From NCBI GenBank assembly GCA_039545335.1, contig BCIN01000006.1:1306958-1370957 (forward strand): a stretch of DNA of 64,000 nucleotides, in the 5' to 3' direction. The position numbers and the translations under genes were made by a program. Below the pieces are notes generated by a model. The model was not told where the DNA came from. It did not search any database and saw only the letters and a program-made list of their open reading frames with translations. The stretch is from Kondoa subrosea (Eukaryota). Below, piece after piece: positions 7,930 to 58,528 of this stretch (within the stretch, counting starts at the first letter, position 1; each line of letters opens with the position of its first letter).

Positions 7930-8402
7930 CTAACCCATTTTGCCCGCAGGGCTTGAAATAGCGCAAATTCAGTTTTATGCGCACTAAGCAAGAACGCTTC
8001 ACGTACTTGACATTCCTGTATTGCGGGTGCTGATCAGCACCGATCACATCAGCAGGAAGAACTACTCACATGCGCCTCTTCTGACCCATAGGGGTAGTGG
8101 AGTTCACGAAGCTAAGAATGAACATCAGAATAACTCTTGTAACTTTCAAGATCATCGTACCGCCTGGACAATAACATTTCGTGAATGTTCAGCTTCATCG
8201 AATGCTGGTAGCTTGTAACGGACCTGTTGTATTTAATTCTCTTCATGGCCCTGCCTTTTGGTTTCTTCTTCTTTTCCTGCGCTTCAACTTTTGGAGTTTG
8301 CGATTTCACCTTGCCTGCAAATATGACCCTTTATTATGGGCCTGTCGAGCAAGTGTAGAGATACTTGCCTGCTCGAGCAAGCGATCCATGTACCTTTCCC
8401 AT
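7930..8402 (-). CDS. RPS30: 40S ribosomal protein S30 (eS30), 6 exons including 3-nt and 9-nt microexons
   Basis: Spliced reading [66 protein letters not shown]. Confidence 0.93.
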
Positions 8403-8824
8403 ATTTTTCGTGGTGCAAGAGAAAGGAGTAGAGACGAAATTTTGCTGGTTCGGTCTTGTCCGTCAATCTATTTCCTAAACCAATAGTCGAAGTTTGAGGA
8501 CTCTGAGGCTTGTGGCGCGCATTCACTGTCCAGCGCCGAGACTAGCAAGAATCCGAATTGCAACTTCGTCAGTCTAGAGCACCCGGAAACAATTAAAGCG
8601 ATGTTGAGCCGGAGCGCAGGCTTGCGCCAGGGGTACTGGGAGTCCGATGATCTCTCTTGGCTCTGCTGCCTGCTCACAAGCTTACGAGACAACGCACACG
8701 CAAGCTCCGACTTCGCTCAAAGACTTTACTGCCATTACAGGTATCGGAGCTGACAACTGACCTGTTTCGAAGCGTTCCGCCTCCGCTGTCATGACTCATA
8801 CCGACTCCGAGTAGTCCCTCCGAG

Positions 8825-10169
8825 ACGCAAGAGCTGTCGCGTGAAGTAACGACAACTGCATTTTCTTCTGGAAATCAGGCTTTACGCACATCAGCCCAGC
8901 TGTCGAGCAATAAGCCACTTCTGGCTGCCGGATAACTCCTTTCGATACAATCTGGCAGTGCTATTGGTGTGATATGCAGCATTAATCAAAGAGGCGTAAT
9001 ATGTGCACGCCTGATTGCGCTAGCGAGCGACAAAATTAATGGTCAACATTACACAATGCTTCCACTGTGCTGGCGTCAATTGTACACGGATGCCAGTATC
9101 TTACTAGGATTTGAGCTTCTCGCCGATGGTGAAAGTGGTGCAAGGGACGAAGACGACTTTCTCTATGGCATTGGTCAATTGGACTCGGCATTGGTCATTG
9201 CAGGAGCACCGGGCGACCACCGCAAGACTTGCATTTTCAGTCTGATCTGTCGTCTGCAAGCATTAATACCGGCCACAGAGATCAAGTTGTTGCCTGTGCT
9301 GGATATCATTTCGCCGAGTACAAGGACACCCTTACCAGCTTCTTCGGATGTTCCTATCTCTTCGGTTACTCTTATACAGCAACTCACACATCTTTCAAGG
9401 CCATTGCTGATTCCGGGAGGTGTTGCGCACTGGCCAGCGCTTGCAAGGTGGAGGGATCTTTCCTACCTCGCTCGTGCAGCTGGTCCAGGTCGAATGGTAC
9501 CGGTCGAAATTGGTCGCGATTACACAAAGGACGGATGGTCGCAAGAAATGAGGCCTTTCACCGAATTCTTATCTTCTCTTTGCAATGTTTCTGCATCTAG
9601 CAAGCAAGAAGTACTATACCTAGCCCAGCACGATCTTTTTCTGCAATTTCCGCAGCTGATGAAGGATATGCTGATTCCGGACTGCGTCTTCACCATTCGA
9701 CCTCAAAGCGCCGTCTATGTTTCGCCCGCGACCAATACAGGTGTTGCCGTTAATGCATGGCTTGGGCCTAAAGGGACCGTTAGTCCAGCGCATACCGATC
9801 CGTACTATAATGCCTACGGTATTTCTCCCGATATGCGCTGTCCGGCAGTAGAGATCTCATTTTGAAGGAATAGCACAAGTAGTTGGCCGCAAACGGGTCT
9901 GGCTAGCCCCGCCGGAAGTGGACATGCGCAACAAAGCTGCAAACAATGAATCGGGAGATTTATTGAATGCACCAAATGCCAGTGTCTTCGGTAATACTTC
10001 GAACATAGACGTCTTCTCCGACGACACGAGCGTAGATGCTTACGGTATGCGCGAGGCTGGAGCTCAAGAGACGGTCTTGCAGCCTGGGGACCTGCTGCTC
10101 ATGCCACCTTTATGGTGGCATGGTATGCAAAGCCTCGACCCATCTTTTTCGGTTAGTCTGTGGTTTTGA
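8825..10169 (+). pseudogene. Second copy of the JmjC (JMJD5/cupin-8-like) gene with a decayed 5' end; might still give an N-truncated product from the internal ATG at 9056
   Basis: 8999-10169 is the reverse complement of 22572-23742 (K vs Q at 9770/22971). 8825-8998 is diverged homology to 23743-23934, with ACG at the start-codon position (8825) and TGA at 8970 in place of TGG. Confidence 0.75.
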
Positions 10170-10452
10170 GGATAGACTGAGCGCATCGGGTAAACTTTGG
10201 AAGGTGAAGTTTGGAAGGAAATATTTTCGAAGACTGGGGGTCAAAGGATGATACTTCGATGCGGAAACATTGATCACGCGAGATCAGTATTGACATTCAC
10301 ACATTGCACTACTACAAATTCTCGATTACGACCGTGCGAAACCGGAAACACCGTAGTTCGCCATCACCCTATTGTACTGGCTGCGGCAGCAGACATGCGT
10401 GAGCTTTCGAAATATTTGCAACTGCAGATGAGCTGACCATGGTTTTGCCGAA

Positions 10453-10641
10453 TCAAGCAATCACACAGACTGTGCCAATGCCACCCGGAGGTCCTGGAGT
10501 GTTACGAGAGACGACACAGACTGTACCAATACCGCCTGGTGGACCTGGAGTGTTACGAGAGACGACACAGACTGTACCAATACCGCCTGGTGGACCTGGA
10601 GTGTTTCTAGGGTCGACGGTGCAAGTAATAGCGGAAGGCAT
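10453..10641 (-). CDS. Lipopeptide mating pheromone precursor with 3 tandem cores (MPSAITCTVDPR-[NTPGPPGGIGTVCVVSR]x2-NTPGPPGGIGTVCVIA*)
   Basis: 62 aa; terminal CAAX (CVIA) and internal CVVS-R motifs. 17-aa repeats differ at synonymous third positions in this frame. Architecture resembles red-yeast RHA-type precursors. Confidence 0.88.
   Translation of the reverse strand: MPSAITCTVDPRNTPGPPGGIGTVCVVSRNTPGPPGGIGTVCVVSRNTPGPPGGIGTVCVIA
10463..10605. repeat. 51-bp tandem repeat (~2.8 units) encoding the pheromone cores
   Basis: Unit acacagactgt(g/a)ccaat...ggagtgttacgagagacg starts at 10463, 10514 and 10565. Confidence 0.95.
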
Positions 10642-12403
10642 GTTCAGCCGAATTCAAAAGGAATGTGAAGGGGCGGTTAGGTGAAGCGTGAGAATATGTG
10701 GATGAAAGCAAGCAAGAAGGTAGGAATTCCCAAGCCTTATACATTTTCGGACAATAGGCCTTTTGTTGCACAAATCAAAAGGCAAAACCGTGACAGACTT
10801 TGACAAAGGAACATAGAGGGCTTTCGTCAGCTCAAGCCCGCTACAGGCACATATAACTACATATAACGGAGGCTCAAGAGGTCAGGTTGGCGTTATTGAG
10901 AGTGCTACTATTGATAGTTGGGGTGGAACAAGTTCATCTGTAATATTACATCCCTGCCCGGAATGATGGGACGGGAATGGCATGCGGTGTAATGCAGGAC
11001 TATGTCACGAAGGTCACCAGTATGGAAGGTATACCTTTGTGAATTTTCAGCACTGCGAATCAAGCAAGATCATTGGGCTTGGTCTTCAGATATATATTTC
11101 TATGTGTAGGGGGAGGCCGACTACGCGGCGAAGCCCAAACCTGCCCCTAAGTATGCAGATATGCGTAGCCAACAGAATATCAATTGCACAACCGTTTCCC
11201 ACTACAAGATGACTGTTCTGCGACTGAATAGGTCAAGGGACAGTATTACCGGGTGATTCGATAAGCGCCACTTGCTCGTCAGATTTTTGCCTCGTACTGC
11301 AGTAGAAGTAGTGTCTCAAAAGCAGATTGAAAGGGCGCATCATACACCGGCGGCTGTAATGAGCATTGTCAGCACGAACATTATTTCCTCGGACTCGGAC
11401 TCTACGCGTTCTGCGCACTCAGCGCTGCGCGTCCTCCTCGATTGTACGCAACGTAAGCCGCTCTTCGCTGAGCAGGGATTTCCCGAAAGAACAGAGAACG
11501 GATGTGGTAGGAGTTAGCAGCACCTGTTGCCCGCAAGAAATATATCGAGTGCCATAGATGTGAACAGAAGTAGCACACGTCTTCTTCTTGTCCGACCTGT
11601 GCCGGGCCTATTCGCGAAAACAGCAGTTCATAGCTCACAATTGATTAGGTTGAGCTCCTAACAACCCATTAATGATGTGAAACCGAAGAAGTTTTGAGCG
11701 GAAGGCAATGGGAACTCGCTTGAATGGGGACTCTGCTGATATCGATAGTCAAGCAAGACAGTTCTGCTGAATGCCTTCTACTTAATCCGCACCCCGAGTG
11801 ATGGTTTATCAGCAAGGAAGCAGCTGATTGGCATTACGTCCATGTGCCAACAAGTGTGCTCTCACACCATTCTCAAAGCAGGTGGCGAGACACTGTCAAG
11901 AGTCGTACTGTTGGTGCTATGATAGGATTGCTGAGCCTGCAGCAGCAGGACACGTCCGAAGCAATGTAATGAAAAGGCAGAAATGATGCCAGAATATAAG
12001 CGTGGCAAAGGAAACAAGAGTCGATAGGTTTGCAGAGATGACCAAAGATATGATTCAATGGCCCTGGTGGCCTGGACGAAAGGCCAAACTTTGCCAAAGC
12101 GGCAGAAGGCGACATGATTCACGGTGATTGATAGCGAAAGCCTGAGAGGAATACTCCAGCTCCGGCGGATTTGTATCGGATCAATGTTGCCGTTGGTATC
12201 AGCAGTTAGCGACTGCATAGCATCACGAGTCATAGCTCGGATCAAATGCTCGAGTTGATTATTGGCTGAATTAGTAAGCATCGGAAGAAGACGGGTCAGG
12301 TGTCAAGTGGTCTTTCCGAGAAGACACGAGGACATTTTTTCCCTTAAGACCCTAATCTATACAGGTTTGGGAACAAGGCCAGTGGCGCAAATATCGAGCG
12401 GCT

Positions 12404-13270
12404 TTATATTAGGCCTGCAGTCTGTAAATATTGAACAAGTCTTTTGACGGACTCCTCCACCGAGCTTTCAGTCGTATCAAGATAAACTTCCGGGGATGTA
12501 GGAGATTCATATGGAGCCGAAATGCCTGTGAAATCTAGGGTAGGCGACCATAAGCCCATAAAGCAAGGAAAGGACATCAAAGTGACCTTGAATTTCGCCA
12601 GCCCGAGCTTTTTTATACAACCCTTTCGGATCGCGTTTCTCGGCCTCCTCCAAAGAAGCATGGACAAATACCTAAACCAATCATAAGGCATGAATGACTA
12701 TGAATTGATTCAAGTTACTTCGATGAACGCCAGACCAGCACGTTCATGCATATCACGAGCACTTTGTCTATCTGCAGTGTAGGGCGATATGAATGCCGTT
12801 ATGGCAATCGTACAGCTTGACGCAAATAATTTGGCTACCTGTTGAACTTTTGAGCCCTGAAGCCTTCGAGGAACCACATTTAGCTCACCTCACCAATTCG
12901 GCGGATATTCTCAGTGCGATCTTTTTCGCTGAATTTGAGGTCTCTGTTCAGGCCAAGCCGTACATTATCGCCATCCAGTCTAAAGGCCCGTTTGCCCATT
13001 TGCAATAATGCTGCTTCCAACGCGACGCCTATAGTAGATTTTCCAGAAGCTATAATAGCCAAATCAGTAGTGTAGGGTCCGAAAAAGTCATGCAAGTGAC
13101 CCGAAAGACCAGTTAGCCATACGGTTGCACCCTTTTGACCTGTCAACCGAATGCGATCGGAATCGGAGACCGTAGAAGCGCTACAGCAGATGCTTTACTG
13201 GTGCGAATACATGGGTGGCTTAAGCTTACTGCCACGTCAGGTTGTTGATGTCGGAAAGATGCGAAGCCAT
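12404..13270 (-). CDS. MET14: Adenylyl-sulfate (APS) kinase
   Basis: [22 protein letters not shown]-loop; [43 protein letters not shown]. Confidence 0.95.
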
Positions 13271-13426
13271 TGTCGGTTGTCACGGATAGATCAGCGTCGA
13301 AGCAAAATTTGTGAGACTTTGCGTTCATGAATGATAGATCTGCTAGTCTTACTATCACAAAGAACTGTCGAAAGTTTCTGTCGAAAGTCTCTATTACTCT
13401 AATTTCTAAGTTGGCACCGCGCTAGA

Positions 13427-16135
13427 TCAATCCACATCCATGTTCAAAGCTTCCGGCTCCAGAGGGATATGAGGTTCAGCGGTATCCTCCGTTTGCTGTT
13501 GGTCAGGGGTAGCTGTTTTAGATTCGCTTGATGCCGAAGCTGTTGGCGTTGGCTCAGCCGATTTGGGCAGTTGCGGAGCTTTTTGGTTGAAGATGGGAGT
13601 GCAGAAGCTGAGTACCGCGCGCTAAGCACGAATTTCTCAGCATGATCCAACACTCACAATATAATTTCGTCGCGTCTTTTGAGGACTTCAGCACTGGTAA
13701 AGCTAGCTTTGGACGATTTCGCTCGTTCCGCCTGACGTGCACTTTCATCATCTAGCCATTTCTCCACCGTAGCGATTTTCTCGACGACAGATTGCTTATC
13801 CACCTGAGTATGTCTTGTGAGCTTCGAGAACATTTTAAGAGCAAGAACATACATCGGAAATGTGCGTGTACCTGGCCTCGTTGGCCGTGGCTTTGGAATA
13901 GTATTTAGACAGAGTTTCGCGAAGGCGCTTTGCTGCCGCTGGTCTGTCTTGATTTTCTTTGTAGCGGAATGCGGCGGGCCCTCCAACAACCTTAAGCTGA
14001 TCCAGCTTCTCCACATACGCTGATTTGGTGGCATCCTCGCCCTATGTACGGAGTCTTAGATACGGAGATGACCCAACAAAGAAAAACCGACTGACTGCCT
14101 CCGAGTATAACCAATCTTCGGCTTCACTCAACAAGCGCTTCAAAGTTTCCTTTTCGTCTGCTACCATGAACCCAGCATACGCGCCATCCACCTTGTCTCT
14201 TGCGTCGTAGATGTACTCCTCTAAGGCATTTTTCCTGTCCTGGAACATTCACGCCGTCAGAGCGCATTGGAGTCCCCTAAACGAAACAAACCTCAGTTTC
14301 GGCTACCAGTCGGTCGGTGGAGTGCATAGCTCCTTCTTGCTCTCTCAATTGCTCCACCTGCGATGCTTCCAGCGCAGCTTGCCCGGTAATGCACACAAGC
14401 TCTGTTCGCTTGACTGTTTTATTGGTGGTTGAATCGGATGCCTCAACATCCTCAGATGCTAATGTTTCCATCTCTTCGTATAAAGTAGCGCTATCAAAAG
14501 CGAATACACCACTGGGGTTTAGACGTGTCTTGATTTTCACTGTAGCAGGCTGTCCTGCATTCGAAGACTTGACCCCTTTGACAGTGATACTGCCTATCCA
14601 GGAGTCAACATTTCCAGGCAATGAAGCATCACTTGAATAACGGGCTTCCAACTTAAAGACATCATGGCGCTGGAGAGTCAACATCTTTGTTGAGGGTACG
14701 CTGTTGCCTTTTTGGAATAGTCGAAGCTCAGTGTCCGAATCTTCTGGGACTTTTTCCCACACAATGTCAATTGGGTAATGCTGGATGTCGGTAAAGGAAA
14801 ATTCCCTGACACGAAAGACGGGCGAGAGTGTTGCGCAAGCTAATGTAGCGCCTCTTGCAACGGCTTCATCTTGATTCGTAGTGACTGAAGTGGGTCGGCC
14901 AAAAAAGTCTTGAATACGAGTCTTCAGTGCCGGAACTCGAGTTGTACCGCCTATAAGTTCAATAGCGTCTATGTCCTCCTTGACTAAGCCAGACTCTTCG
15001 AGTGCTTGTTGCAAAGGCAGCGTAGTGCGCTCGAGAAAAGGTGCCACCAGCTCTTCCAGCTTTTCCCGAGTTAGAGACGAAGCAGCATCTATATCGTCCA
15101 TAATGCTTTCGACATTTAGAGGAGCAGAGATGTTGGCAGATAAGACTTTCTTCAACTTCTCGACCGCAGTATACAAGCGAAAGATTGCTTTCTTGTTTGA
15201 CATCACATCGATCTTGTATTTGGTCCGGAACTCTTGGGCAAAGTATTCGACCAAGGCGAAATCTAAATCACGGCCGCCAAAGTGTCGATCATATGCCGCA
15301 GCTTTGATAACGACTTGAGCTTTGGAATAAGCGGCTATGGTGACGGAATAATCGGAATGCCCAATGTCCACAAAAGCGACATAACGTGGCCTTTCTGTAC
15401 TTTCCGGAAGATCCGTTTTGGTGATGCCGTATCCAAGTGCAGTTGCGGTTCCGTCATTGATGAGGCGCAGAGCGTTCAGACCAGCAATATCGGCCGCATT
15501 CAGTACAGCTTGACGCTGGATATTGGTATACCAGCCAGGAACGGCGATGACCACATCATTGACGGCTGCTTTGGATTCCGTCTGGGCAATATCGCGTAGC
15601 TTACCCAGATACATAGCATACAGTTGGGTAGCAGTGAATGTATGTTGTTCGCCTAGATAATTTACCTGCGGCAGGACAGCGTCAGTACCTAAATGAAAGC
15701 TCCATTATGTCAAGTACCTCGACACCGACGGTGCCAGCTATATCAACCAGTTGCGCATTGATGAATTTTTGCTCGTAGGTTTGCAGATCCGAATCTTGGA
15801 AGGTGCGACCTATGAGACGCTTGAGAGAACCAATGGTATTCCGATAATTCGAGGTTTCTTGTGTTTTGGCGGATTCACCCATCGTCCGATTACGGGAGCC
15901 AAAAGACACCAAGGATCTGTACTGAATGTTCAACAAAACACTACCGAAGAGGAATAAGACTGACGGTGTTGCTCTGTTCGATGTTTCATTCACGATGATA
16001 TCAATGCCTCTGTTACGTGCCAGGCCAATTTTTGATTGTAGATTACCAATGTCGAGACCAATTACTGATGCTATATACGAGGGCGGCCTAAGCAGAGTGT
16101 ACATTTTGGTAAGGCGAATCTTATTGCTTACTCAT
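13427..16135 (-). CDS. SSE1: Hsp110/Sse1 (Hsp88) family chaperone
   Basis: SVIGLDIGN, RGIDIIVNETSNRATPS, IELIGGTTRVP, DRKNALEEYIYDARDK; ends MDVD*. Confidence 0.95.
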
Positions 16136-18279
16136 GTTTAGCTAGCGAGGCTGTCCGTTTCAAAAAAAGCTGTTGGCAGCAGTGGCACAACGAACGAACC
16201 TTGTTGCGCGGGTTGCGGGTCAAAAGCAAGAAAGGTGATGCAAAAAATTTGCCCCATCATAGCAAAGTAGTACCCATGCAGCCACACCTTTCTTCGTGGC
16301 TCATACTGTTCGTACAGCATGGGTGACTTCCAGATTCCTAGTGAATGCCACTTCCAGCCCGAAAGCATACATATAACAAGTTGCAGTGGCAGATATAGGT
16401 GCCTGCGCAGGTGTGCACGAGCAATCCAAAAGGGCTTTCGCGAACGCGTCTTGGTCAGTCTGGCTCAGTACGGACGCGCCCAGATGCAACAACTCGATCA
16501 GGGTTCGTGCAAGACTCCTGGTCCTCCCCGTCATGATCAATGTCAGGCGTTCCATTTGGCTGCCTCAATGCCTCAACAGGTTATGTCCAAGCTCTGCGAC
16601 TCTAGATATCTTATGCGGAACGATGAAATTCTCAAGTGATCCGAATTTGAAATCGCTGCTGAAATCAATTTTTCGGCAGCTGGGGACGTAGGCGATGCAA
16701 GTTGCAACGTGAGCTTGCTACTTTTTGTTGCTGCGTCCTTTCATAAGTACTAGCACTCTATCTGACTATTTGAGCACTACTGTAGCTCTTGTGGCTGTCT
16801 GCCGTAATCTGCGTAGCGTTGGCCCCCTTATGTAAGCCTTTTCTTTCCAGACGCAACTTGGCGGGGCAGGCTAATATGTCCATAGTCGATCGCAACTAAT
16901 ATTGCTCGAAATCCCGTCTGGGTCCGCCGAAGAGCGAACGACCCGGAGAGTAGTGATGGTACGCGCTGCTGACCATTTCATTGTCAATCGGTCATGTACA
17001 TAAGCAAGTGTGTAGTTCATAATTCTCAGCCCCGTTTATTGAGCCATGCGCAGCGTTGACAGGTCTATCGCAATGTCTATCTGTTTCTCTCAGATAATCC
17101 GGTACATCACCATCCGGCTGTTACTATCGACGCATCACTTCCAAAAGCTCCAGCTCAGAGGAGCTAGCTGTTGCCCAAAGCGCAACCTGGTCATGTCACG
17201 TACTATAATCTTGAAAGGTCTTACAAAAAATGTCATTTAACCTGAACGATCCTGACCCGTGCCTGACAGCCGATTGGATTTTCCATCATCTGCACCCTCA
17301 ACCAGCAGTATTAATACTACTTCGATCGAAGGAAATATGCAGCATCTGGCTTAGATGGATATTTTTGGCGTCGAAAGAGTACGGCAGTAACGAAACTTCA
17401 CAATTGACTAGAGCGACTTTTCAGGGCTCGTTTCGGTACCACCAAGGTGAGTGACCGCGCGGCTTGAGATTGGCGGGCTGTGTACGGAATAACACCCCAT
17501 GCAAGCAGCCGGATCACGCTTTAAGCAAAGTATTCACCATGGAAGCCGATCAACTTGCTATAAGTGGACGGAATCATTGCTCAAAACGGGGATAGCCACG
17601 TTTACGCCGAGAAATCTACTCGAGGAACAGGCAGTTTCGGCAAGCTGTTTGCAGGTAGTACATCAGATAGACCAACTGTAAGATAGACCGACTGTATGCT
17701 TCAGCTAGGAGTGCAAAAGTGCAGCTTTGACTGAGTGGCTTCCTTATGTTGGCCAATTGCTACATTCAAGCTTCCTGATGGTGAGCCGGAACACTTAGGT
17801 AGAGCAGTCAGTGCCATGCTACAAGATCCGCACAAAGGGCTGACCCAGGGGAACATAGTGATCAGGCAAGACGACGGATCGAAAGACTGAGCTGTACAGT
17901 TGGATGCATAGTGCCAACGCGCAACAAGAGAGTGCATGTGTTTCAGCGGTAACACATCGTGAAATTGAATTGCACTGTGAAAGGATTGCACTGTGTTTGG
18001 GTCGACGAACGACAGTGTCGAAGCGCTTGTGCAGACGATATTTGCTATATGAATCAGAACGCTCGACCACTTCGCAATTCTCATTATTGCGGAGGTTTCC
18101 AAACAAACCTGGAAAATATCATAAAGAACCCGGAATTCAGGAGGTCGCGCAGTGTACGTGAGAGTCAAGACTAGTTGATTCCATGATCCCAATTGCTACA
18201 CCGCGGGGACGAATATGTAACGGGGTTCTCTGTATCCGTGCAAGTCAACAGTTGATGAGACAGGCATCGCTCATACACC

Positions 18280-21214
18280 CTATGCTTGTGTCCCTGTCGC
18301 AGGACTCGATATAGCGAGCCTTGGGTTCTCGCAACGGATCCCCATTGCAGTAGAAGCTTTCCTTTGACCGGAGCTCAGTTGTGGCTCGCACTCTGCCGAA
18401 GGTCGCAGCAACTTACAAGCCTTGTCCTTGAACACTCCTGTTGAGTCTTTTGAGTCTTTGGCCGCCTTGCGAGCAAGCAGTTTTCCGATCCATTCTTTGG
18501 CGAAATGTCGAATCTTTCTCTCTTTTTCCATAGATAGGCTGTCGTATTCTGCATCCGCAAACGCAACAGACTTAGTCTCCTTGTCGACTAGCAACATGGT
18601 AAGCTAAAGCAAAACATCAGACCACTGCAGCTTCGTGTGAATGGCCGTACTTCTTGTGCCCGCCGCTTAAACTCGTCTTTGTTCAACTGATCTCTGGCAT
18701 ACTTTGTCATTGCCTTCACGACAAGAGGTGAGAATAACCTCATAGCCTTCTTCTCTTTGGACATGGGCAACTTCTCTTTCTTCGTTCGATTCACGACCTC
18801 ACTCTGTGGTTTTGATCTCTCATGCTCTAAAATTGAATTGGCTGCATTTGTTTTCGAAAGACCTAGCGCCTCTGCTTCGGCTGAGGCCCTGGCGATTATG
18901 TCTTCGAGATCTAATCCTGGTTTGCGGAGCTTTGCAAGATAAGCTTGATGAATTGCTTCAGCTTCCTTCTGGGATGGCGGCGTCCAGGTCGTGGTCCCGG
19001 TACCAATATGATAGTAGTAACGAGCGCCGTGTGCCGTTTCCGCAGATTGCCATCCCTCGTAGATCGAGATTTCGCTCGCAGCTGCAGATCTAGTTGGAGC
19101 CGCAGCAGCATAATTCGCATTCGGAGATGTGTGATAGTCATCCAGCTTTGCCCTTTTGATCGAAAAGACAGGCGACGCTAAAGCATCGGGTCCATGTTTG
19201 CGTCCGTCGCTACCGAGTAAATTCTGTCGAAAGACATTTGAGCACACGAGTAGCACATTACAGAATACATGAGAACCGACCTGCACGTCGCGCGGAATCC
19301 GGTAAGCCAGTCGGAGCTCGCTCCAATCTGCAATAAGTGCTCTAGCTAAGTCCTTCGTTTCGGTCTCGAATGTGCCCTGGATAATGCGCGCAACGATCGA
19401 CTCTACAGATGTGCTTGATATCTTATTACGACTGATCAGCGGCCATTTTTGCATAATTTGAAGCACGGAAGCAACGACTTCGCTTTGATCGTCCATGTAT
19501 TCTTCCAATAACATACCCATCAGACTGAAACCACGCAAACGCATAAGTTGACTATGCACTGTTGTGTCGGTCGTAATGAGCAGCCGTGTAAGTAGCTTGA
19601 GAAGGATGCGCTTTGTTGATGCCGCCTGACGCACGGCTGCAATGACTTTTGGTACTTCTTCCAATTGAATTGGTCGCATAACAGGCTAAAAGATTTGAGA
19701 CACATGCATGCAGATCAGCCAATCTATGACTCACATTGAAGTCATTATCATCAAGGCTCCTGCTTTTCTTGCGCTTATTGCCTCGGAGCTCTAGCAATTC
19801 CACCTCGTCCGTAATTCCCAATGCTATTCAACTCCTTAGCAGAGTGAGCTGTCACTTAATGAGCACTGACCGTCAAGGTACAAATCATCGAGAAAACCAA
19901 TATCGGTCTGAGTTTTGCCACCAATGAAGCCGACACAGTTTGACTCCCCACAAAAGCATTCTTGTGCATCGTGACTTTGTTTGACAGTATGTTAGAGGGA
20001 GCGCGATTTCGGCAATACAATTCGTAGACATACCCATAGCGGTCGACGTTATAGTTGAAGGTCAGTTCTTCACCACGTTGGATCTTCCGCTTGGTGAAGA
20101 TGCCCATGCGAAGTCTTCTGCCCACCACCCATTTCGCAACATAACAATTAGGATTACAAGAATGATTGAGAAAGCGGCCTTTGCCGCCTCGTTTCGTTGC
20201 GTCAATGAACTGCCAGAGTTTTGCTTCAGCGCCATACGTCGCTTGGTAGATTACTCATACTTCATCCTTCTGCAAAGCCATAAAGTAGAAGTGGCGGATG
20301 CCCTCCTCGTAGTACTCAGTCATGCGTTTGACAAAGTTTTTGTGCCCAATGACTTCGCCAATGTACTCGTACACCAAAGTATCGCTGTAATATATTCAAT
20401 GAGTGAATATTTGATGGAAACGACTGATTGTGACCTACGCGGGTAAAGTCATTTCAGACATAATGCCGTAGCCTTTGCGAGGTGTTTGAACAATTCTTAT
20501 GGGTGCGTATTGTTGCTGCTGGAGCCTTACAACAGCGCCATCTCAAGTTCCGCACGCTTGGGAAGAAAGCTGGTACACTTACCGTTGATTCTGACAATGT
20601 GTCTGACAGTTACATTCGTTCTGAGGGCATTCCACTTGAGTCAGCCGATTTATACAGCCGCTGCTGTCGCCGCAAGCAACATTTGGACCATCCATTTCTG
20701 TGATAACTTAAGCCAATCACCAGGAATACCGGAGTCGCAAGCACCACACCTGGCTCATAGATGCAGTCGCATTGGAAGGAATCGTCTTGTTGCTTAGCTA
20801 GGCCAAGAGACTTGTTCTGGTAGGTGTTGAACTGTATTTCAATAAACTCGCTCATTGCCTGAGCAGATCTCTTAGTCATAACTCTGATCTGGGAAGTATA
20901 TAGCACACTTCTGTTCCCGCATCGGGAAGCTCCAGTATTGTTCGAACACCGGCCCACGACTTCATGTCATCTTCGGACGATTGCACTTCCTTTTGCACTT
21001 GATCTATTTTGTTTTGGGCGGTCTTTTGCTCTCTAGCACTATGGTCCTGACTTGTTCGTGGGCGAGTCAGAATGGCACGTTGGGATCTTCTAGGTGCAGG
21101 TGTATTCGCTACTGCCTCATTAGTCTCTAAAACACCAGAAAAGGCATCTTCGGCAGCAGGCGTGCAGACCGGCAAGAGGGTAACACTTTGTGGTACATTA
21201 TAAGCCGCAGACAT
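18280..21214 (-). CDS. SET2: Histone H3K36 methyltransferase (AWS-SET-postSET, WW, SRI), multi-exon
   Basis: [40 protein letters not shown] domain [30 protein letters not shown]-like [14 protein letters not shown]. Confidence 0.93.
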
Positions 21215-21974
21215 GGTCGTTGGTTGACCCTAAATAACAAATATCGTCAATACTCGATGGTTTAGAATGGCGATACGAATCGAACGAACGGACATTCAAA
21301 TAATGATTCGCCCGTACTGTATCTCAGGCCGGCACAGATGTGTAATATCGGATCCAGTTGAAGTTTGGGATCAAATTCCAGATTGGCGCTAAGAGTTGTA
21401 GGGAGGCAGAGTGCAGACGCCTGAATGTTGCGCTGATAGTATCGCACAAGGTGGATCGCTACAGCAGATATTTATTGTTGTTGTTGTCCTGTTCTCAGGC
21501 TGTAAAGCTCGTGATTTGGTCAGGTTCCAGTGGTGGTGGTCAAATGCATCGAAGCGATGTTTATGGATTCGCGAGTTTTCGTAACTCATGAGTACATAAG
21601 GCTGCATAAGGCTCTGGGCCAGAGGGAAAGAATCGTTTCTGATTACCACAGCCTGAGCACTCTAGTAGCGATCAGACAAATGCCACCTACAGCCTGAGCT
21701 ATGTGGTTCTATTATCTGTCTTTTAGAATCATTCTTGTGTCAAGCTCGGATCTAGCCTCTGATAGAGTACGTGGCTGACTTCCGTGACATAGTCCTGCAT
21801 TACACCGCATGCCATTCCCGTCCCATCATTCCGGGCAGGGATGTAATATTACAGATGAACTTGTTCCACCCCAACTATCAATAGTAGCACTCTCAATAAC
21901 GCCAACCTGACCTCTTGAGCCTCCGTTATATGTAGTTATATGTGCCTGTAGCGGGCTTGAGCTGACGAAAGCCC

Positions 21975-22060
21975 TCTATGTTCCTTTGTCAAAGTCTGTC
22001 ACGGTTTTGCCTTTTGATTTGTGCAACAAAAGGCCTATTGTCCGAAAATGTATAAGGCTT
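21975..22060 (+). promoter_or_regulatory. Putative pheromone-gene promoter: HMG-box-like sites and a TATA box (mirrored at ~10732-10817)
   Basis: TTCCTTTGTC at 21981, AACAAAAGG at 22025, CTATTGTCC at 22035, and TATAAG at 22051, 100 bp upstream of the ATG at 22151. Confidence 0.45.
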
Positions 22061-22150
22061 GGGAATTCCTACCTTCTTGCTTGCTTTCATCCACATATTC
22101 TCACGCTTCACCTAACCGCCCCTTCACATTCCTTTTGAATTCGGCTGAAC

Positions 22151-22288
22151 ATGCCTTCCGCTATTACTTGCACCGTCGACCCTAGAAATACTCCAGGTCC
22201 ACCAGGCGGTATTGGTACAGTCTGTGTCGTCTCTCGTAACACTCCAGGACCTCCGGGTGGCATTGGCACAGTCTGTGTGATTGCTTGA
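22151..22288 (+). CDS. Lipopeptide mating pheromone precursor with 2 tandem cores (MPSAITCTVDPRNTPGPPGGIGTVCVVSRNTPGPPGGIGTVCVIA*)
   Basis: 45-aa ORF read directly (below the ORF-track cut-off); terminal CAAX CVIA; paralog of 10453-10641. Confidence 0.88.
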   Translation: MPSAITCTVDPRNTPGPPGGIGTVCVVSRNTPGPPGGIGTVCVIA

Positions 22289-22571
22289 TTCGGCAAAACC
22301 ATGGTCAGCTCATCTGCAGTTGCAAATATTTCGAAAGCTCACGCATGTCTGCTGCCGCAGCCAGTACAATAGGGTGATGGCGAACTACGGTGTTTCCGGT
22401 TTCGCACGGTCGTAATCGAGAATTTGTAGTAGTGCAATGTGTGAATGTCAATACTGATCTCGCGTGATCAATGTTTCCGCATCGAAGTATCATCCTTTGA
22501 CCCCCAGTCTTCGAAAATATTTCCTTCCAAACTTCACCTTCCAAAGTTTACCCGATGCGCTCAGTCTATCC

Positions 22572-23934
22572 TCAAAACCACAGACTAACCGAAAAAGATG
22601 GGTCGAGGCTTTGCATACCATGCCACCATAAAGGTGGCATGAGCAGCAGGTCCCCAGGCTGCAAGACCGTCTCTTGAGCTCCAGCCTCGCGCATACCGTA
22701 AGCATCTACGCTCGTGTCGTCGGAGAAGACGTCTATGTTCGAAGTATTACCGAAGACACTGGCATTTGGTGCATTCAATAAATCTCCCGATTCATTGTTT
22801 GCAGCTTTGTTGCGCATGTCCACTTCCGGCGGGGCTAGCCAGACCCGTTTGCGGCCAACTACTTGTGCTATTCCTTCAAAATGAGATCTCTACTGCCGGA
22901 CAGCGCATATCGGGAGAAATACCGTAGGCATTATAGTACGGATCGGTATGCGCTGGACTAACGGTCCCTTGAGGCCCAAGCCATGCATTAACGGCAACAC
23001 CTGTATTGGTCGCGGGCGAAACATAGACGGCGCTTTGAGGTCGAATGGTGAAGACGCAGTCCGGAATCAGCATATCCTTCATCAGCTGCGGAAATTGCAG
23101 AAAAAGATCGTGCTGGGCTAGGTATAGTACTTCTTGCTTGCTAGATGCAGAAACATTGCAAAGAGAAGATAAGAATTCGGTGAAAGGCCTCATTTCTTGC
23201 GACCATCCGTCCTTTGTGTAATCGCGACCAATTTCGACCGGTACCATTCGACCTGGACCAGCTGCACGAGCGAGGTAGGAAAGATCCCTCCACCTTGCAA
23301 GCGCTGGCCAGTGCGCAACACCTCCCGGAATCAGCAATGGCCTTGAAAGATGTGTGAGTTGCTGTATAAGAGTAACCGAAGAGATAGGAACATCCGAAGA
23401 AGCTGGTAAGGGTGTCCTTGTACTCGGCGAAATGATATCCAGCACAGGCAACAACTTGATCTCTGTGGCCGGTATTAATGCTTGCAGACGACAGATCAGA
23501 CTGAAAATGCAAGTCTTGCGGTGGTCGCCCGGTGCTCCTGCAATGACCAATGCCGAGTCCAATTGACCAATGCCATAGAGAAAGTCGTCTTCGTCCCTTG
23601 CACCACTTTCACCATCGGCGAGAAGCTCAAATCCTAGTAAGATACTGGCATCCGTGTACAATTGACGCCAGCACAGTGGAAGCATTGTGTAATGTTGACC
23701 ATTAATTTTGTCGCTCGCTAGCGCAATCAGGCGTGCACATATGGCTTTGGTTTTGCGGCTTTGACGCAATGCTGCATACCACAGAGACAATACTGCGAGA
23801 CCACATTGAGAGAAGTCAGCCGCTGGTAGTAGACAGCATGAACTTATTGCGTATGCTAGCGATTGAGATGTAGTACTACCTGATTCCGCGGAGAGGAAAG
23901 CAGCCATCGTTGCTTTGTGTGATGACTCTTGCAT
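22572..23934 (-). CDS. JmjC-domain 2-oxoglutarate/Fe(II) oxygenase (JMJD5/KDM8-like, cupin-8); one intron at 22868-22922
   Basis: WPALARW, VPVEIGRDYT, YLAQHDLFLQFPQL, NAWLGPQGTVSPAHTDPYYN (HxD), QVVGRKRVWL, LQPGDLLLMPPLWWHGMQSL (distal His), FSVSLWF*. Confidence 0.9.
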
Positions 23935-24063
23935 TGTGGGGAATGCTCAACAAAACACCGGAGATTGACGGTTTGAGACGAGTCAGTGTCACGGCAGAAA
24001 TCATCCGTTGAACAACAACCGATAGATCAAGATTAGTCTATAGCGTCTGCAAGTAATTTCAAG

Positions 24064-25693
24064 ATGTCGACACAGTCGACTCCTGAAAAGGTGAAAAAAC
24101 GTGAGTTATCTCGAGGAAAAGCTCCTGCCTTTTTAGCAATGGGCTCACGTACATTATGCAGCTCTTCCTTTCGCCTGCAAGTGACTGCCAGTACTTCTGC
24201 ATATGCGAATGGACTCATGATTAGGAGAACAGATCAATTTGCAGCCGGTGCCATCGCGGGCGTGACAGAACTGTTATGTCTATATCCATTAGGTCGGTTT
24301 GTCAAGTGAAAGCAGTTCAATTGGAAACTAATGCTATGCAGATGTTGTGCGTCCAAGTGACTGCAGTAGCTTGCAACATTAAGATGCCTCTGCAGGTCAA
24401 GACAAGAATCCAACTGCAGACTAAGTCTTCTGGGACGAATTACACTGGCATGGTTGATTGTGAGTATATTTGTCTTCTGTTCCGACTCCTGTATGCTGAC
24501 ACAGGGCATTGAGGTTTTCGCCAAATAATTGCTCAGGAAGGGTATGTCTCACGCTGAATTTCCGCCGATTAGCCTTTTGCTTCTTATGCTTCAGGTTTGG
24601 GCGCCTCTATCGCGGTCTTGTGCCGCCTCTCATGCTAGAAGCCCCCAAACGAGCTGTTAAATTCTCCGCTAATGGGTCAAATCTCCAATAATTGCCGATT
24701 TTACACAGCTGATCCCGTTCTTTAGCTTCTGGGGAAATACATATAAAGAAGTATTCAACGCTCCTGCGATGACTCAGAACCTGTCTATCTTGACCGGATG
24801 CTCAGCTGGGGCGACCGAAGCAGTGGTGGTTGTTCCATTTGAGTCTGTCTTTTCGGTGACATCAACATACTATGTGTATCTTACAAAATCCTTTCCAGAC
24901 TTGTCAAGATTCGTTTACAAGACAAGGCTAGTACGTACAAAGGACCCTTGGACGTCGTAACGAGGATAGTGGCTTCAGATGGTCTGCTCGGTTTATACGC
25001 TGGATTGGAATCGACTATGTGGCGGCACATCATGTGGAGTGAGTTTTGTTCACAGTTGCTGTCAGGCCCATGTCCTAATGTTTCTAATCAAGATGGTGGA
25101 TACTTTGGTTGTATTTTCCAGGTCAAGGCAATGTTGCCCAAAGCCACTGTGCGTGTAGTGTCACAGTGAATGTTAGAGGGTCTGATGGATATTTGCGCTG
25201 TGGAAGACTCCTTCTGGCGAATGTCAGTACCTACAGTTTGTGCATACATGAAATTTTTAACGTTACCTTTTGAATAGTAAGTAATAACTTCGTTTCTGGA
25301 AGCGTGGGCGGATTCATTGGTACCGTGAGTCGCTGCCCCTGCGTTCCATCGGCTGCCTTGCTAAAATATACCCAACCTTTTTTTCCCCACGCAGGTATTG
25401 AATACTCCATGTACGAGCCGAGCAAGTCATGACGTCTGACAGCTGACAAGGCTTTAGTCGACGTGATCAAATCGCGCGTGCAGAATTCTCCAAAGGTGGC
25501 CGGACATCCGCCTAAGTACAATTGGACGCTACCATCTTTGCTGATCGTGGCACGCGAAGAGGGATTTGCAGCTCTGTACAAGGGCTTTCTGCCTAAAGTC
25601 CTGAGATTAGCCCCAGGAGGCGGCGTACTGCTATTGGTAGTGGAAGTTGTCGGAGGCTACTTTAGAACGAAACTTGGGGCAGAGTATCTCTAG
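24064..25693 (+). CDS. ODC1: Mitochondrial 2-oxodicarboxylate carrier, many small exons
   Basis: PLPFAYQFAAGAIAGVTELLCLYPLDVVKTRIQLQ; RLYRGLVPPLMLEAPKRAVKF; LYKGFLPKVLRLAPGGGVLLLV. Confidence 0.9.
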
Positions 25694-26772: not shown

Positions 26773-29376
<2,604 letters not shown>

Positions 29377-29852
29377 TGATGGTGGTCACTGGTATTCGAC
29401 TGGGCGAGCCGTACATCAATGAAAATTGACAGTCATAAGAGTGCCATATCAGGCGAAAGGTTCACTCTTAAACAGCGAACTCGACATCCTTCAAGCTTTG
29501 CCATGCAGCGGTTATTGTCTACCGTCAGCCTAAACGTCTATTACACATTGCGTTGTAACTTTGATCTTTCCGCTGCCGTACCAGGTTGAGCCGGATGACA
29601 ATGACCAGTAATCCCGTGTGCCACAATGCCTTCCGAGGTGCCAAGCCGAGAGGCTACAGTATACGGCTACACTACCCATTCCAAGGTTCGCTTATAATTG
29701 AGCAGAAACCAGCGAATTTGCGGCAAATGATGGTTGCCATGCAGATTCAGCTGTAGATGATCTTTAGATGCCTCAGACGGGAAGCTGGTCCGATGAACTA
29801 ACAAAAATTTTAGGCTGCGTCTTTAATCCAAAATTGAAACTCGGAAGCGTTG

Positions 29853-31357: not shown

Positions 31358-32063
31358 ATGCGACGGGTCTCTCGTATATGGCAAAATCGTTGCTACTCTA
31401 CAGCTTCGCATGAAGCTGCTAAGGACAAGCTCTTCGTAAATCAAAGCTATCGTGGCAGCTGGAATCCTGAGCAATACCGACCCCTCGTGCAGGCGAATAG
31501 TGGAACTTGGCGCAAGACGCATTCTTCTATACCTGCAGAGACAATGCTGGAGCTTGTGTTCGGCGCAACTCAGCAGCGCCTTCTTCCGCAATCCGCAAGT
31601 CGGCACAGAGAGTCCTTGATGCAAGTCACCACAGGACTGATACACATCCCGGTTGTTACCTATCCAGGCATATTCATTGTTCGTACGTCCGGATCAAGGC
31701 TACATTTGCGATCAAGTACAATGCTCATTCTGCTTGGTCTTTCCAGAGTCGCGCCAAAGCAACAAGCTAGCAACATTCGCGGAGCAACGACAGCAGAAGC
31801 TTCAAGACTGTCCCTCAGCTATGATAGCCCCTAGCATGGACAGCAGCCCACTAGCTATCAGTATGGACAGTGTCAAAAGAAAGAGAAAAACCAAGGTGGG
31901 CTGCTTGATCACGCGGGCTACGTTCCTTAATCCTGCTGCCAGATGTCAAAACACAAGTAAGCTGATTTACGCTTGGCTTCTCGACTTCGTCAGGCTTATT
32001 GAATCCAGATACAAAAAGCGTCGAAAGGTTCAGAAAGCAATGCGCAGGCGTCAGGGCAAATGA
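31358..32063 (+). CDS. COX24: Mitochondrial ribosomal protein mS38/Cox24-like (DUF1713 C-terminus)
   Basis: N-terminal MRRVSRIWQNRCYST presequence; spliced C-terminus MDSVKRKRKTK|MSKHK|YKKRRKVQKAMRRRQGK* with a 14-nt exon at 31943-31956. Confidence 0.75.
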
Positions 32064-33575
32064 TTTCCTTCAAATGTGTAACATCATATTATGGAATGAT
32101 ACGCTAGCAATGGCTGACATACAATTTACATACAATCTCAACTATTGCAAGCTGTACTGTTTCCCCCTCTGAAGGCCACGTCTGCTTGCCAACTTTCATC
32201 AGTAGAGGGGTGAGACGTACGTGAGACCCATAAAGAGGAGGACGCTTGGAGTCGCGCATTACCGCTTCTAAGTTGGCGACGACTCGGACAATTTTGCGAC
32301 ACATAACCGAACGTTCTTGATATCAATGGTCAATAAATCAGCTTCATCTGGAAGAGCCACAGAAGAAGAGCAGTAGGTAGCATCGGCACGGATTTGTGCC
32401 ATTTGCTGATCTCATCATACGTTCAGTATCAAGGCATCTAGTTACCTGTCATGGCAAGCTGTAGCAGATGATCCAAATCTCGAAGTTTGGGCGATACGCT
32501 GTCCAGCAGGAGTTACTCCTCCTTTCGACGCCATTTGCTACCCACTAATTCCTTCAATCAGATCAAATCTACTCACCTGGAAAAGATCGCTTGGCTGAAC
32601 GACTTCACTGGCGATCTCAAAGCTCGACAGAACACTTACACCATTGAAAGACAACGGGAGCCATCAACAAGTCCTTCCTCAGATTCGCGTGCGGAACTAC
32701 CTCAATTGAAGGTGCTTCTACCATTTGATAGCCAAGCACGTTCTGGTTACCGGATAAGTCAGCCTGCCCTTCACATCCTCCTCCATACCGGCTCACGTCT
32801 AATATAGATGTCGCAACGATCAAGACTCTGCTGGTGAAGCAAGTCGTGGACCTATAGCAGCAGTAGCAGTAATTGGAACTTTGCACACAGCCAGAACAGC
32901 CTTTCTTGCATTGCGCAGAGCTTCATGTACCGCAAAAACCTGTTTTGTCACAGTTTTTGACTGCCTGAACCGGTCCCTCGCTCGGTGAACAACCAATTGG
33001 GCTTTGTTCGTGTCTCACCCCTTGCTCTTCGTATGCACTACCGCTTTGCGAAGGCGTGCATTTGATAGGCAGCCTCTTTATCTCGCATGCCTCATTTCTG
33101 CCGCTTAATATACGCCCGTACTTAGAGTACCTATGTGACGCAAAGGAGTCCAAGAGTTGAATTTCGTGAGGCAGCTGATATCAGCGCGGAGAGGACGAGT
33201 TCAATTGCAAATTCAGCCAACATCAGTCAATAATAGTCAAATCAATTCTCATCTCTTGGAGAATTCGCAAGCCTTCTAAATTTAATAACCACGACAAATT
33301 CGTGAACTCCTGTCCATGTTACGAAGCTCGCCTGTTTGCTGCAATCGGGTAGCACGAGCATTGGAAGATCTGGAGCGCTTCCGATATTAATTTGTTTCGA
33401 CTCTTCCTTCCTACGGGAGCATCCGAACAACATTTGCTTCACTTACAATTCTTGGTAAGAATAAGATCAATGGTGTAGAATACGATTGACAATGAGGAAT
33501 TTATAAAAGCAATACGAGAGCACAGATCTATGCCCATTAAGGTAGCGTATTGTGAGTTTCTCGCATTATGCAGCA

Positions 33576-34868
33576 TCAAATCAGACAAGATTTCAGCCGC
33601 TGGGCTTCCACTCTGCATCGTTGCACTTTAAAGCGGAAAACTGCAACGGCCTGAATGAGTAACGCTTGAGCTGAATATTGGCCGGCAGCTTCGACAGTGA
33701 CTAAATTTGTAATAAGATGCTCCTGTGTTCAATTGATAGTACAGGGCTAGACTCACAGATGAAATGGTCCCGTTTACGCCCCAGACGAACTTTGTCCTCA
33801 AAGTGCGGATACCGCAATACTTCTCGACTCACAGTGTCCAGTCTGGTATTAGCCACAGATGCAGTGGGGACGCCCTTCGAGTCCCTGACAAGCTGAATGA
33901 CGCCAACTGGGAAACACTGGGCAAAAGCGACGCATTGCTCTGGGGGTATTGGCTGAATGATTTCGATGGAAGGGAGCAAGCGATAAGATGCTGTCGCTGC
34001 ATGACCCGGAAATGATCAAGCTCGTCAGAAGCGTGAGTGACCGCTGGCTTACCGACAGGAGACCATTTCGCGTGGTCTTTTCCAGTACCTTTCTGACAAT
34101 GCATTTCGCAAACTATCTCTTGACCAGGGCGCATTTTGGCAAGTAGAATATCGTCATTCACTGCCTTAGGTGTACTTTGAAACCGAACATGCTGGTCGCC
34201 TTTGGGAGCGAACAGAATATCTCGAGAATAGACTGCAGGCTTAGTGAACAGACGATCTGGCTCCGTTTCCTCTTCGCGTGGGTTGCTGAGACGATCACAC
34301 GCCGCAGCCAGCTTGAAAACAACGGTATTTGCGTCATTCGGAACAGCATTAGCTGAATGTAGAAGTAAGCGACAATCAGCAAGTTTTAGCTGACTGTGTG
34401 TCCGGAGCGCTCACATTGTCGCCACTCCACCAGCTCCGGATCACACAAGATTGGTATCAAGCCCAGTCTCTGTGCTAAAACTTCGTCTTGTACCAGCGAT
34501 GTGTTGATCCATATGTATACATGCTCGATCGCGACCGTGGGTATCTGAGATAACACAGTTTTCCTGCTGAGGATGCGGGTGCAACGCAGAAAGTTAACCC
34601 ACCTCTGCAATTAAAATGCGCCGGAGCGCATTGGCAACAGATGCGTCGATGCCAATCAGGTCGAATTCTATATGATCGGGCGAGAGGTGGATGATGCGCG
34701 CGAGAAAGCTGGCTTCAAAATCAGCAATGTCCCATGACTGATCATAAGCCGGCGAGGAGATCTGGGTGCAGAGATCATCGGGGTTGAGAAAGTTTTCCAG
34801 TTTCGAGGAAACAAGCTTACATTGCCAATTTTCTCGCGGCCCAGCGCCACATGAGTCGCAGATTCCAT
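33576..34868 (-). CDS. RPC40: RNA polymerase I/III subunit AC40 (RPAC1)
   Basis: FDLIGIDASVANALRRILIAE|IPTVAIEHVYIWINTSLVQDEVLAQRLGLIP; DILLAKMRPGQEI; GKDHAKWSPV; DTVSREVLRYP. Confidence 0.94.
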
Positions 34869-39533: not shown

Positions 39534-40242
39534 TCAGTGCTGTGTCCGCCGGAGCTTTACATCCCAATTGTATACTCGAGCGATATTCACTTCAGTCACG
39601 GTTATTTGCTCTCGTAACCAGTCCAAATCGTCTTCTGTGGTCTTCAATGTTTCTTGAGCTGCTACTACTTTGGTTTTAAGCAGCTGTTGAGCAGTAGAGG
39701 CTTCGTAGCACAGCATGACATTAGCCTTCGATGCAATAAGCAGGTTTTCAAGGTCGAATAAGAACTACTTACGCCAAGCCACAAATGCACCATGCTCGTG
39801 TCTGCTAGTGTCGCGCCGGCGTACAGAGTATCACTCAATTCGAAGGTGGATCGCGTTGGTGAGCCCTATAAATCCAATCAGAGCTTGGAGTGTAAAAAAG
39901 GTGCCAACCAACTTTGCGGCGGCCTAAAGTTTCCAGCACCTGAAGTGTGCTGTCGAATTCGATTAATTTCACTGTCGTGTGCATCTTGCGCTGCCCAGCG
40001 TTAGTTTCCATGAAGCGGTACTTGCTGCGAAGCCAATTTCAGTACACATCTTTGTCCATCATGATACGCCCTACGCCAGGAGCTCTTGCAATGACTTCAG
40101 GGCGTCTTCGCTGTTAGGATATTGCGCCAAATAGGCGCCAATATCTTGCAAAAACGGTGCCTTTGGAATCTTGATTCGAGTCAGCGTGCTACTCCGCCTT
40201 GCTCTGAGCAATTTATGGTACCCCTCTTGCGTTGATCTCCAT
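39534..40242 (-). CDS. PAC10: Prefoldin subunit 3
   Basis: NARG|IPKAPF, KYRFME, FELSDTLYA, LWLG|ANVMLCY, DLDWLREQITVTEVNIARVYNWDVK. Confidence 0.92.
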
Positions 40243-57850: not shown

Positions 57851-58528
57851 TCACTCCGCCTCCGAAACGGCTTCGTCCTAAAACGGAGAACTTTAACCTT
57901 TACAAGAGCTTAAAGCAAAATGACTCACCTCATCAACGTTGAAGAATTTGAGTTGATAGGTGTTTTTGTCAGAGGCGACAACGCGTAACCATTCTCGCAT
58001 GGAGTCTGAAAAAACTGTTATTCCTGGCTATGACAGAGAAGAATGTTCAGCTTACTTTTCTTCAAGTATTTCTTGGTCAAATACTTCAGATATCTCTTAG
58101 ACACCGGTACAGTAGAAGAGACAGCTAGTTTGCCGGTACCTATAAACATTAATCAACATTAATCAGATTGCAGAAAATTAAAGAAGCTTGATAGCAGGTT
58201 CTCACTCTCTCTCGACAGTTTGATCTTATCACCAAGCTGTCCTGATCTGCCATCGACTTTAATTCGGTCCTGCATGACTAGAAAATCAAAGTGAGAAAAA
58301 TCGATTCAGGAAAGTTATCCAAGTACACTTTTCAAAGGCCGCAGCATCAAAGATCTTATCGTTGGCGGGAATAGAGTAGTCAATGTAAAAGGTGTTGGCG
58401 CCAGCCGAAGACCCTTTGGCGGATTTGGCCGATTTCTTGGGAGTCTGCAATACAGAGGTCTACTGAGTTACAGCAAAACATGTATCCGTCAGGAATAGGC
58501 GCACAGCTACTACGATCGAAGAAGACAT
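57851..58528 (-). CDS. RPL22: 60S ribosomal protein L22 (eL22), multi-exon
   Basis: [77 protein letters not shown]. Confidence 0.93.

Follow-up and report, generated by a model that had tools for sequence, protein, structure and literature searches.

A multi-core gene and its inverted-repeat copy probably encode a rhodotorucine A-type mating pheromone precursor near a P/R-like region of a basidiomycete

Pheromone precursor genes of multi-core design have been known since 1989. In Akada's account of that year, the spacer of the RHA genes is said to end in Lys. The RHA1-3 genes of R. toruloides and the RHA.A1 genes of Sporidiobolales encode tandem peptides ending in Cys, with CAAX-like spacers between them and a true CAAX motif before the stop codon; they are present in several copies per haploid genome, lie in inverted repeats and are linked to STE20, RibL6 and RNAPOL/RPAC1, and their differences between species are synonymous only (PMC3068285, PMC3236058, 10.1101/2025.09.11.675505; these and the other papers given here by identifier are cited for what the accessible part of their text states). 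The locus described here resembles the RHA genes in each of these respects. It differs from them in the basic residue of the spacer, which is Arg, and in its leader of 12 residues, which also ends in Arg. Its genes contain two or three cores, and that of a relative four, whereas four to five are cited for Sporidiobolales in the accessible text of PMC4675872. Also in contrast to the RHA genes, it belongs to an organism that falls outside the Microbotryomycetes in a tree of CBF5 proteins, and STE3 is not adjacent to it. The peptide itself appears to be unrelated to the RHA products as far as this can be checked.

Other described systems share parts of this design. The a1 pheromone genes of Microbotryum have identical peptide repeats within and between loci, occupy multiple loci and are under strong purifying selection, and synthetic peptides are active (PMC4675872). 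The likeness is one of design, and the activity of synthetic peptides is a result on Microbotryum. Puccinia MFA1 precursors are 61-76 aa long, bear repeats and are predicted to yield several mature peptides (PMC10977897). The rust repeats are, however, described there as not all identical and as differing in conservation from one repeat to another, whereas all cores are identical in the present genes. HPP1 of Trichoderma reesei likewise has several CAAX-type motifs in one small precursor, and a rhodotorucine-like maturation has been proposed for it (PMC3068285), but it comes from an ascomycete (Hypocreales), its motif is CPAX and it stands outside a P/R-locus context. Finally, MFalpha and MFa of Cryptococcus, Mfa of Ustilago and MFA1/2 of Phaffia have in common with the present genes a small precursor, a C-terminal CAAX motif and multiple copies in inverted repeats and, in the case of Cryptococcus and Phaffia, a nearby STE20 gene (PMC5103461, PMC3236058); in contrast, they hold a single core per gene.

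The gene that we describe lies in a 64-kb stretch of DNA (64,000 nucleotides, the whole of which is called the window hereafter). We propose that this gene and at least one other, situated in or next to a pheromone/receptor (P/R) mating-type region, encode the precursor of a farnesylated mating pheromone of the multi-core (rhodotorucine A) type, and we put the probability of this reading at about 85%. The gene, which we call copy A, occupies 10453..10641 on the minus strand and encodes 62 aa. A first-pass annotation of the sequence had described a minus-strand ORF of that length with three cores and their CAAX tails, and its coordinates and translation were reproduced exactly. The product consists of an Arg-terminated 12-residue leader, MPSAITCTVDPR, followed by three copies of the 13-residue core NTPGPPGGIGTVC with the tails VVS-R, VVS-R and VIA-stop. 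The core, we presume, loosely resembles the MFalpha peptide of Cryptococcus (PGG...C-VIA). An in-frame stop codon is located four codons 5' of the ATG, and Tandem Repeats Finder reports at 10463-10605 a repeat with a period of 51 nt, 93% matches and 2.8 copies. The first two units have the same DNA sequence, from which unit 3 departs at 12 of its 51 positions. Six of these differences fall within the 13 codons of the core, and all six are silent and at third codon positions (P about 5e-4); another, GTC/GTG in the first codon after Cys, is silent as well, which gives the seven silent third-position changes counted earlier (six in the core and one in the tail). The remaining five convert the tail from VVS-R to VIA-stop.

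Relatives of this gene were found by scanning metagenome contigs with a degenerate pattern for GPPGGIGTVC. The scan returned two contigs (L001 and L002), each with matches spaced 51 nt apart. L002 contains a complete ORF of 79 aa at 823-1062, with the leader MPSAATRTVDPR and four cores that are the same 13-residue peptide as in the window, and with the tails CTVS-R, CTVS-R, CVVS-R and CVIA-stop. The L001 contig ends within the gene, so that its last three units are complete and a fourth is present in part. In a blastn comparison of L002 with the window, DNA identity is about 80-83% over 820-1058 of L002, which is essentially the ORF, and the flanks are without similarity. The two leaders are identical at 10 of 12 residues, and the ATG and the CVIA-stop are also kept. 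All 12 complete units available for comparison (five from the window, four from L002 and three from L001) encode one and the same core peptide through eight distinct DNA sequences; 12 of the 39 core positions vary, and their distribution over first, second and third codon positions is 0/0/12 (P about 3e-9). The predicted mature peptide is thus under purifying selection across species.

These data also bear on whether the repeat might belong, as an exon or a fragment, to some larger collagen-like protein rich in Pro and Gly, or might be a minisatellite that does not code. Its PGPPGG composition and its 51-nt tandem structure are what such readings would lean on, and the term "collagen-like" that had been applied to it is apt for the composition; as a statement about function it has no meaning here. 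Against a larger protein or a minisatellite stand the stop codon four codons before the ATG, the stop immediately after CVIA and the restriction of between-species similarity to the ORF, and Gly-X-Y periodicity is limited to one hexapeptide. A non-coding repeat is excluded because all 12 variable core sites are third positions. We therefore regard this whole group of explanations as extremely improbable.

Two further properties are common to the genes of the pheromone precursor reading. CVIA-stop ends both genes of the window (copy A and a copy B, described below) as well as L001 and L002, the ORFs being 62, 45 and 79 aa long and that of L001 partial; the number of tandem cores is three in copy A, two in copy B and four in L002, with VVS-R or TVS-R as spacers. 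The X residue of the CAAX motif is Ala where the motif is terminal and Ser where it is internal, in 12 of 12 units. Ala or Ser at this position directs the protein to farnesyltransferase and not to geranylgeranyltransferase, so that CVIA, CVVS and CTVS are CAAX boxes of the farnesyltransferase type. Moreover, Arg stands before each core in both species, the first core included (DPR|N, VVSR|N).

The choice of the coding strand deserves attention, as the plus strand carries an antisense ORF of 81 aa at 10439..10684 whose third codon positions coincide, base for base, with those of the sense frame. The silent changes had been taken in the first-pass annotation as a sign of selection on the minus-strand peptide and not on the antisense product. 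They do show coding constraint, but silent sites cannot tell the strands apart because the third positions of both frames coincide; five of the six core changes of copy A are silent in the antisense frame as well, and the remaining one exchanges Ile and Met. One may accordingly imagine that the antisense ORF is the one that truly codes and that the CAAX pattern is a by-product on the opposite strand. In the window as in L002 this frame is open, and its repeat peptide is nearly invariant, with two versions (Ile/Met) among the 12 units, as the coinciding third positions would have it. The codon for the spacer Arg, however, is CGT, CGC or AGA; in the sense frame the change from CGT or CGC to AGA leaves Arg as it is, but in the antisense frame it replaces Leu-Arg by Phe-Leu. 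The window and L002 furthermore have in common the sense start codon, the leader and the CVIA-stop, and the antisense product is without recognisable feature. At the level of the sequence, the sense strand is settled by the CGN/AGA codons for Arg together with the CAAX-stop, and we consider an antisense gene to be very improbable indeed.

Upstream elements on the sense strand also speak against the antisense reading. A putative promoter of copy A (10735..10809, minus strand) would comprise a TATAAGG at 10735-10741, about 95-100 nt 5' of the ATG, and two HMG-box-type sites (CT3-4GT / ACA3-4G) that start at 10760 and 10803. In copy B, TATAAGG is located at 22051-22057 and the HMG-box-type sites start at 21984 and 22026. 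L002 shows the same arrangement: its TATA box is located about 100 nt 5' of the ATG, and further upstream the CT3-4GT / ACA3-4G sites form a cluster. In the window gene, two HMG-type sites lie within 45 nt, at least two being present in 1.2% of the 150-nt segments of the 64 kb; L002 has four within 86 nt, and none of the 150-nt segments of the 64 kb has three or more. We take these sites to resemble the binding sites of HMG-box pheromone-response factors. Together with the TATA box, they are no more than suggestive of mating-induced transcription.

A second copy of the gene, absent from the earlier annotation, was found in this analysis. Copy B (22151..22288, plus strand) encodes 45 aa, with the same leader as copy A and two cores; it differs from copy A by one synonymous AAC/AAT change and by the lack of one 51-nt unit. 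The two copies are part of an inverted repeat. Arm A (8992..11019, about 2.0 kb) contains a 5'-truncated Cupin_8/JmjC copy and pheromone gene A with about 375 nt upstream of it, and arm B (21773..23749) contains pheromone gene B and a longer Cupin_8/JmjC copy. In the register 8999-11016, the arms are identical except for four mismatches and the 51-nt indel. They are separated by a segment of 10.75 kb (11020..21772) with an APS kinase gene, a gene of the HSP70 family and a SET2-like gene. The Cupin_8/JmjC copies (8936-10166, plus strand; 22575-23946, minus strand), co-duplicated with the pheromone gene, differ by a single base (9770/22971). The copy at 8.9-10.2 kb has its 5' end cut by the repeat edge, its first Met being residue 41 of the ORF, and that at 22.6-23.9 kb extends further at the N-terminus and has its Met early. 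Because it is the Cupin_8/JmjC copy at 9-11 kb that is cut at its N-terminus, the arm at 22-24 kb was probably the source of the duplication and the one at 9-11 kb its product.

Logan contigs from two DNA runs break at 8999 and at about 11009, which are the edges of the repeat, and the loose contig end at 8999 corresponds to the flank of arm B. A search of sequencing runs gave these two DNA runs and no RNA run. Both were made from a single sample; the window itself may derive from it, so that they are not independent. In both, contigs match the window from 9473 on, and the sequence before this point is absent from the window; this junction is a hint that the repeat, with the pheromone gene included, has a third, partial copy elsewhere in the genome. 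Word depth, which is not to be read as copy number, rises over the repeat in the runs. Just outside the inverted repeat and upstream of the gene for ribosomal protein S30 (8115-8330, minus strand), a 36-aa ORF at 8682-8792 (minus strand) ends in CVVS-stop. It is one of 15 small ORFs of the window with a loose CAAX ending, and chance may account for it.

Pheromone genes in inverted repeats are described for S. salmonicolor, R. toruloides and C. neoformans; in the first two, the MAT A1 pheromone genes are placed in conserved inverted repeats, whose identity is attributed, probably, to gene conversion (PMC3236058). Gene conversion between the arms would likewise hold both pheromone copies of the window identical. 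Recombination between the arms could, in addition, invert the 10.75-kb segment.

The surroundings of the two copies were compared with the P/R mating-type region of Rhodotorula. Pfam matches identify a mitochondrial carrier (24843-25166, plus strand; counterpart of MITCARR1), ribosomal protein L6 (25634-26443, minus; RIBL6), a STE20-type PAK kinase with PH, PBD/CRIB and kinase domains (27530..29385, minus), the mating-pathway member of this set, which was confirmed as a PAK kinase, without useful taxonomic information, by a search of the ESM Atlas with its ORF, Per1 (30.3-31.7 kb, minus), an Rpb3/AC40-type subunit of RNA polymerase (33832-34410, minus; RPAC1), an RRM protein (35252-36795, plus; the RRM gene of the P/R locus), an ABC1 kinase (37067-38348, minus; ABC1) and, in a six-frame read, a prefoldin (39564-39755, minus; PREFOLDIN3). 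The core genes of the Rhodotorula P/R locus are given as STE3, RHA, STE20, RIBL6, RPAC1 and RRM, with MITCARR1, ABC1 and PREFOLDIN3 in the extended flank, and RHA genes in several inverted copies are described as recurrent; the seven families listed above for the 24.8-39.8 kb interval besides Per1 are all found in or beside this locus according to the same accessible text (10.1101/2025.09.11.675505).

The relative shows a comparable linkage. In L001, a STE20 homolog starts about 0.55 kb (from the translation) downstream of the pheromone gene and has the same orientation; the beginning of the PH domain, at 3-143 of L001, is 57% identical over 47 residues to 29083-29223 of the window. Since the genes of the window match the Rhodotorula P/R list and STE20 is linked in L001, the neighbourhood is of P/R type in both organisms. 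The proposal of a Pucciniomycotina-style multi-core CAAX precursor, made before from the letters alone, has thus gained from the second copy in an inverted repeat, from an ortholog with four cores, from core substitutions that are synonymous only and from a P/R-like neighbourhood that includes STE20.

Some further observations concern the same regions. The segment 623-1038 of L001 is 98.8% identical to 873-1288 of L002 over 416 nt, the pheromone gene included, and the contigs then diverge, L001 running into STE20 and L002 into a Got1/Sft2-like gene; the relative therefore has at least two copies of the pheromone gene, or two strains were sampled. At the far end of the window are a weak match to ribosomal protein L22e (58289-58459, minus strand) and a myosin motor gene (61893-64000, plus strand). 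Both are families that we take to be linked to the Cryptococcus mating-type locus.

Linkage to an STE3 receptor gene, whose absence the first-pass annotation had named as part of a refutation, was not found: Pfam scans of the 64-kb window for STE3 (PF02076) gave zero matches in the parts scanned. These scans covered 88 of 88 stop-to-stop ORFs of at least 110 aa, 40 ORFs shorter than 110 aa in 23.9-25.4 and 31.5-33.9 kb (within a set of 42) and 126 such short ORFs in eight other gaps (within a set of 137). Six-frame reads, with X at stops, covered 31.6-33.9, 38.3-40.5, 10.9-13.0, 48.4-51.2, 16.1-17.8 and 0-1.3 kb; the interiors of assigned genes and the gaps at 5.8-6.8, 13.2-14.3 and 21.1-21.8 kb lie outside the full six-frame reads. 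The gap at 31.7-33.8 kb is where red-yeast synteny would place STE3, and nothing in Pfam matched 31700-33300, a stretch of about 1.6 kb that separates Per1 from the RPAC1-type gene, in any of the six frames. A hydropathy scan for a 7-TM gene, a method too crude to weigh on either side, showed no convincing cluster.

The lack of an STE3 match in the parts scanned is what favours the view that the gene is real and selected but that its product is something other than a mating-type-specific pheromone, such as a prenylated autocrine or other signal in a homothallic or asexual lineage, or the product of a pheromone gene left behind after the receptor gene moved. In red yeasts, STE3 is normally found beside RibL6/RNAPOL, and one species has a relocated STE3.A1, as far as the accessible text of PMC3236058 goes. 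On the other hand, the repeat-bearing mfa1 genes of cereal rusts and the STE3.2-3 allele are 10 kb to 0.5 Mb apart (PMC10977897). Because of these distances, a pheromone gene far from its receptor is normal in Pucciniomycotina, and STE3 missing within 64 kb is weak evidence. Purifying selection across species and the kept linkage to STE20 also fit a working mating signal, and we hold a product that is not a mating-type-specific pheromone to be quite unlikely. A related scenario, to which we allow a small but real chance, is that the lineage kept the ancestral Pucciniomycotina P/R neighbourhood and that the receptor was lost or moved, the peptide, which is the same in both species and under very strong purifying selection, having become a signal untied to a linked receptor allele. 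It may then serve, for example, in homothallic self-signalling or as a pheromone common to species without a pre-mating barrier, and the inverted repeat would act as a switchable inversion of the 10.75-kb segment.

We then return to the preferred reading, a mating pheromone precursor of rhodotorucine A type, and to the way in which such a precursor would mature. The C-terminal CVIA would be farnesylated on its Cys and would then lose its last three residues. A cut after the Arg that precedes each core (DPR|N, VVSR|N), a monobasic cleavage, would free the units, and trimming of the basic residue would leave the next CVVS at the C-terminus, where it becomes a CAAX box in its turn and is processed in the same way. 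A single 62-aa precursor would thus be the source of three copies of one lipopeptide of 13 residues, NTPGPPGGIGTVC(S-farnesyl), whose C-terminus may or may not bear a methyl ester. Rhodotorucine A has a free carboxyl. After its export, the peptide would act on cells of the opposite mating type through a receptor of the Ste3 type. For rhodotorucine A, a processing that starts at the C-terminus and bares each internal CAAX in turn has been proposed (PMC3068285).

The origin of the window was addressed with two of its proteins. For the CBF5 ORF, the named best matches among the 120 listed are all from Basidiomycota, at 72-76% identity; for Per1, the best named match is at about 43%. A CBF5 tree was built without outgroup from 32 rows chosen from the 120 listed matches, and its branch to the window is inflated because a stop-to-stop read was used as the window row. 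In this tree, the window pairs with the protein of one relative (99/100), outside the Microbotryomycetes clade (99/98) and outside the Agaricomycotina clade (100/98). The closest CBF5 relative (P0003) is at 84% identity and a Per1 relative (P0121) at 49%; if the two are on one contig, Per1 and CBF5 are linked there too. The only conclusion that we draw from these protein comparisons is that the window appears to belong to a basidiomycete without a close named relative, with a P/R neighbourhood like that of Pucciniomycotina yeasts.

Other origins were tried and set aside. Trichosporonales have one pheromone precursor gene per MAT allele, as far as the accessible text states, and there are two here. 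In Cystofilobasidiales, Phaffia has two different single-core MFA genes, each located by an STE3 gene (PMC5103461). For both orders, the position of the window outside the Agaricomycotina clade of the CBF5 tree is a further argument. An ascomycete h-type pheromone was rejected on the CBF5 matches, whose best named entries among the 120 listed are all basidiomycete.

A protein search with the 62-aa ORF returned 87 candidates, none at E <= 10, and no proven pheromone was similar. The 13-residue core and 7-residue pieces of core and tail gave no match in the searchable text of papers, a body of text that is without figures and PDF supplements; in the first-pass annotation, too, the sequence was not recognised as a described pheromone. 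The precursor design itself, being of rhodotorucine A type, was already known.

Gene callers routinely miss pheromone genes. The present analysis gives a basidiomycete lineage without a close named relative a likely mating pheromone and a position for its P/R region. It reveals no new principle or new kind of system; its value is that of a sound and useful annotation in a lineage that is unstudied. Synthesis of so short a peptide is feasible, which makes the prediction directly testable. The occurrence of the multi-core design outside Microbotryomycetes, with the same companions (STE20, RibL6, RPAC1, ABC1 and prefoldin), supports an old origin of both in early-diverging basidiomycetes. For the organism itself, the locus is a starting point for asking whether, and how, it mates.
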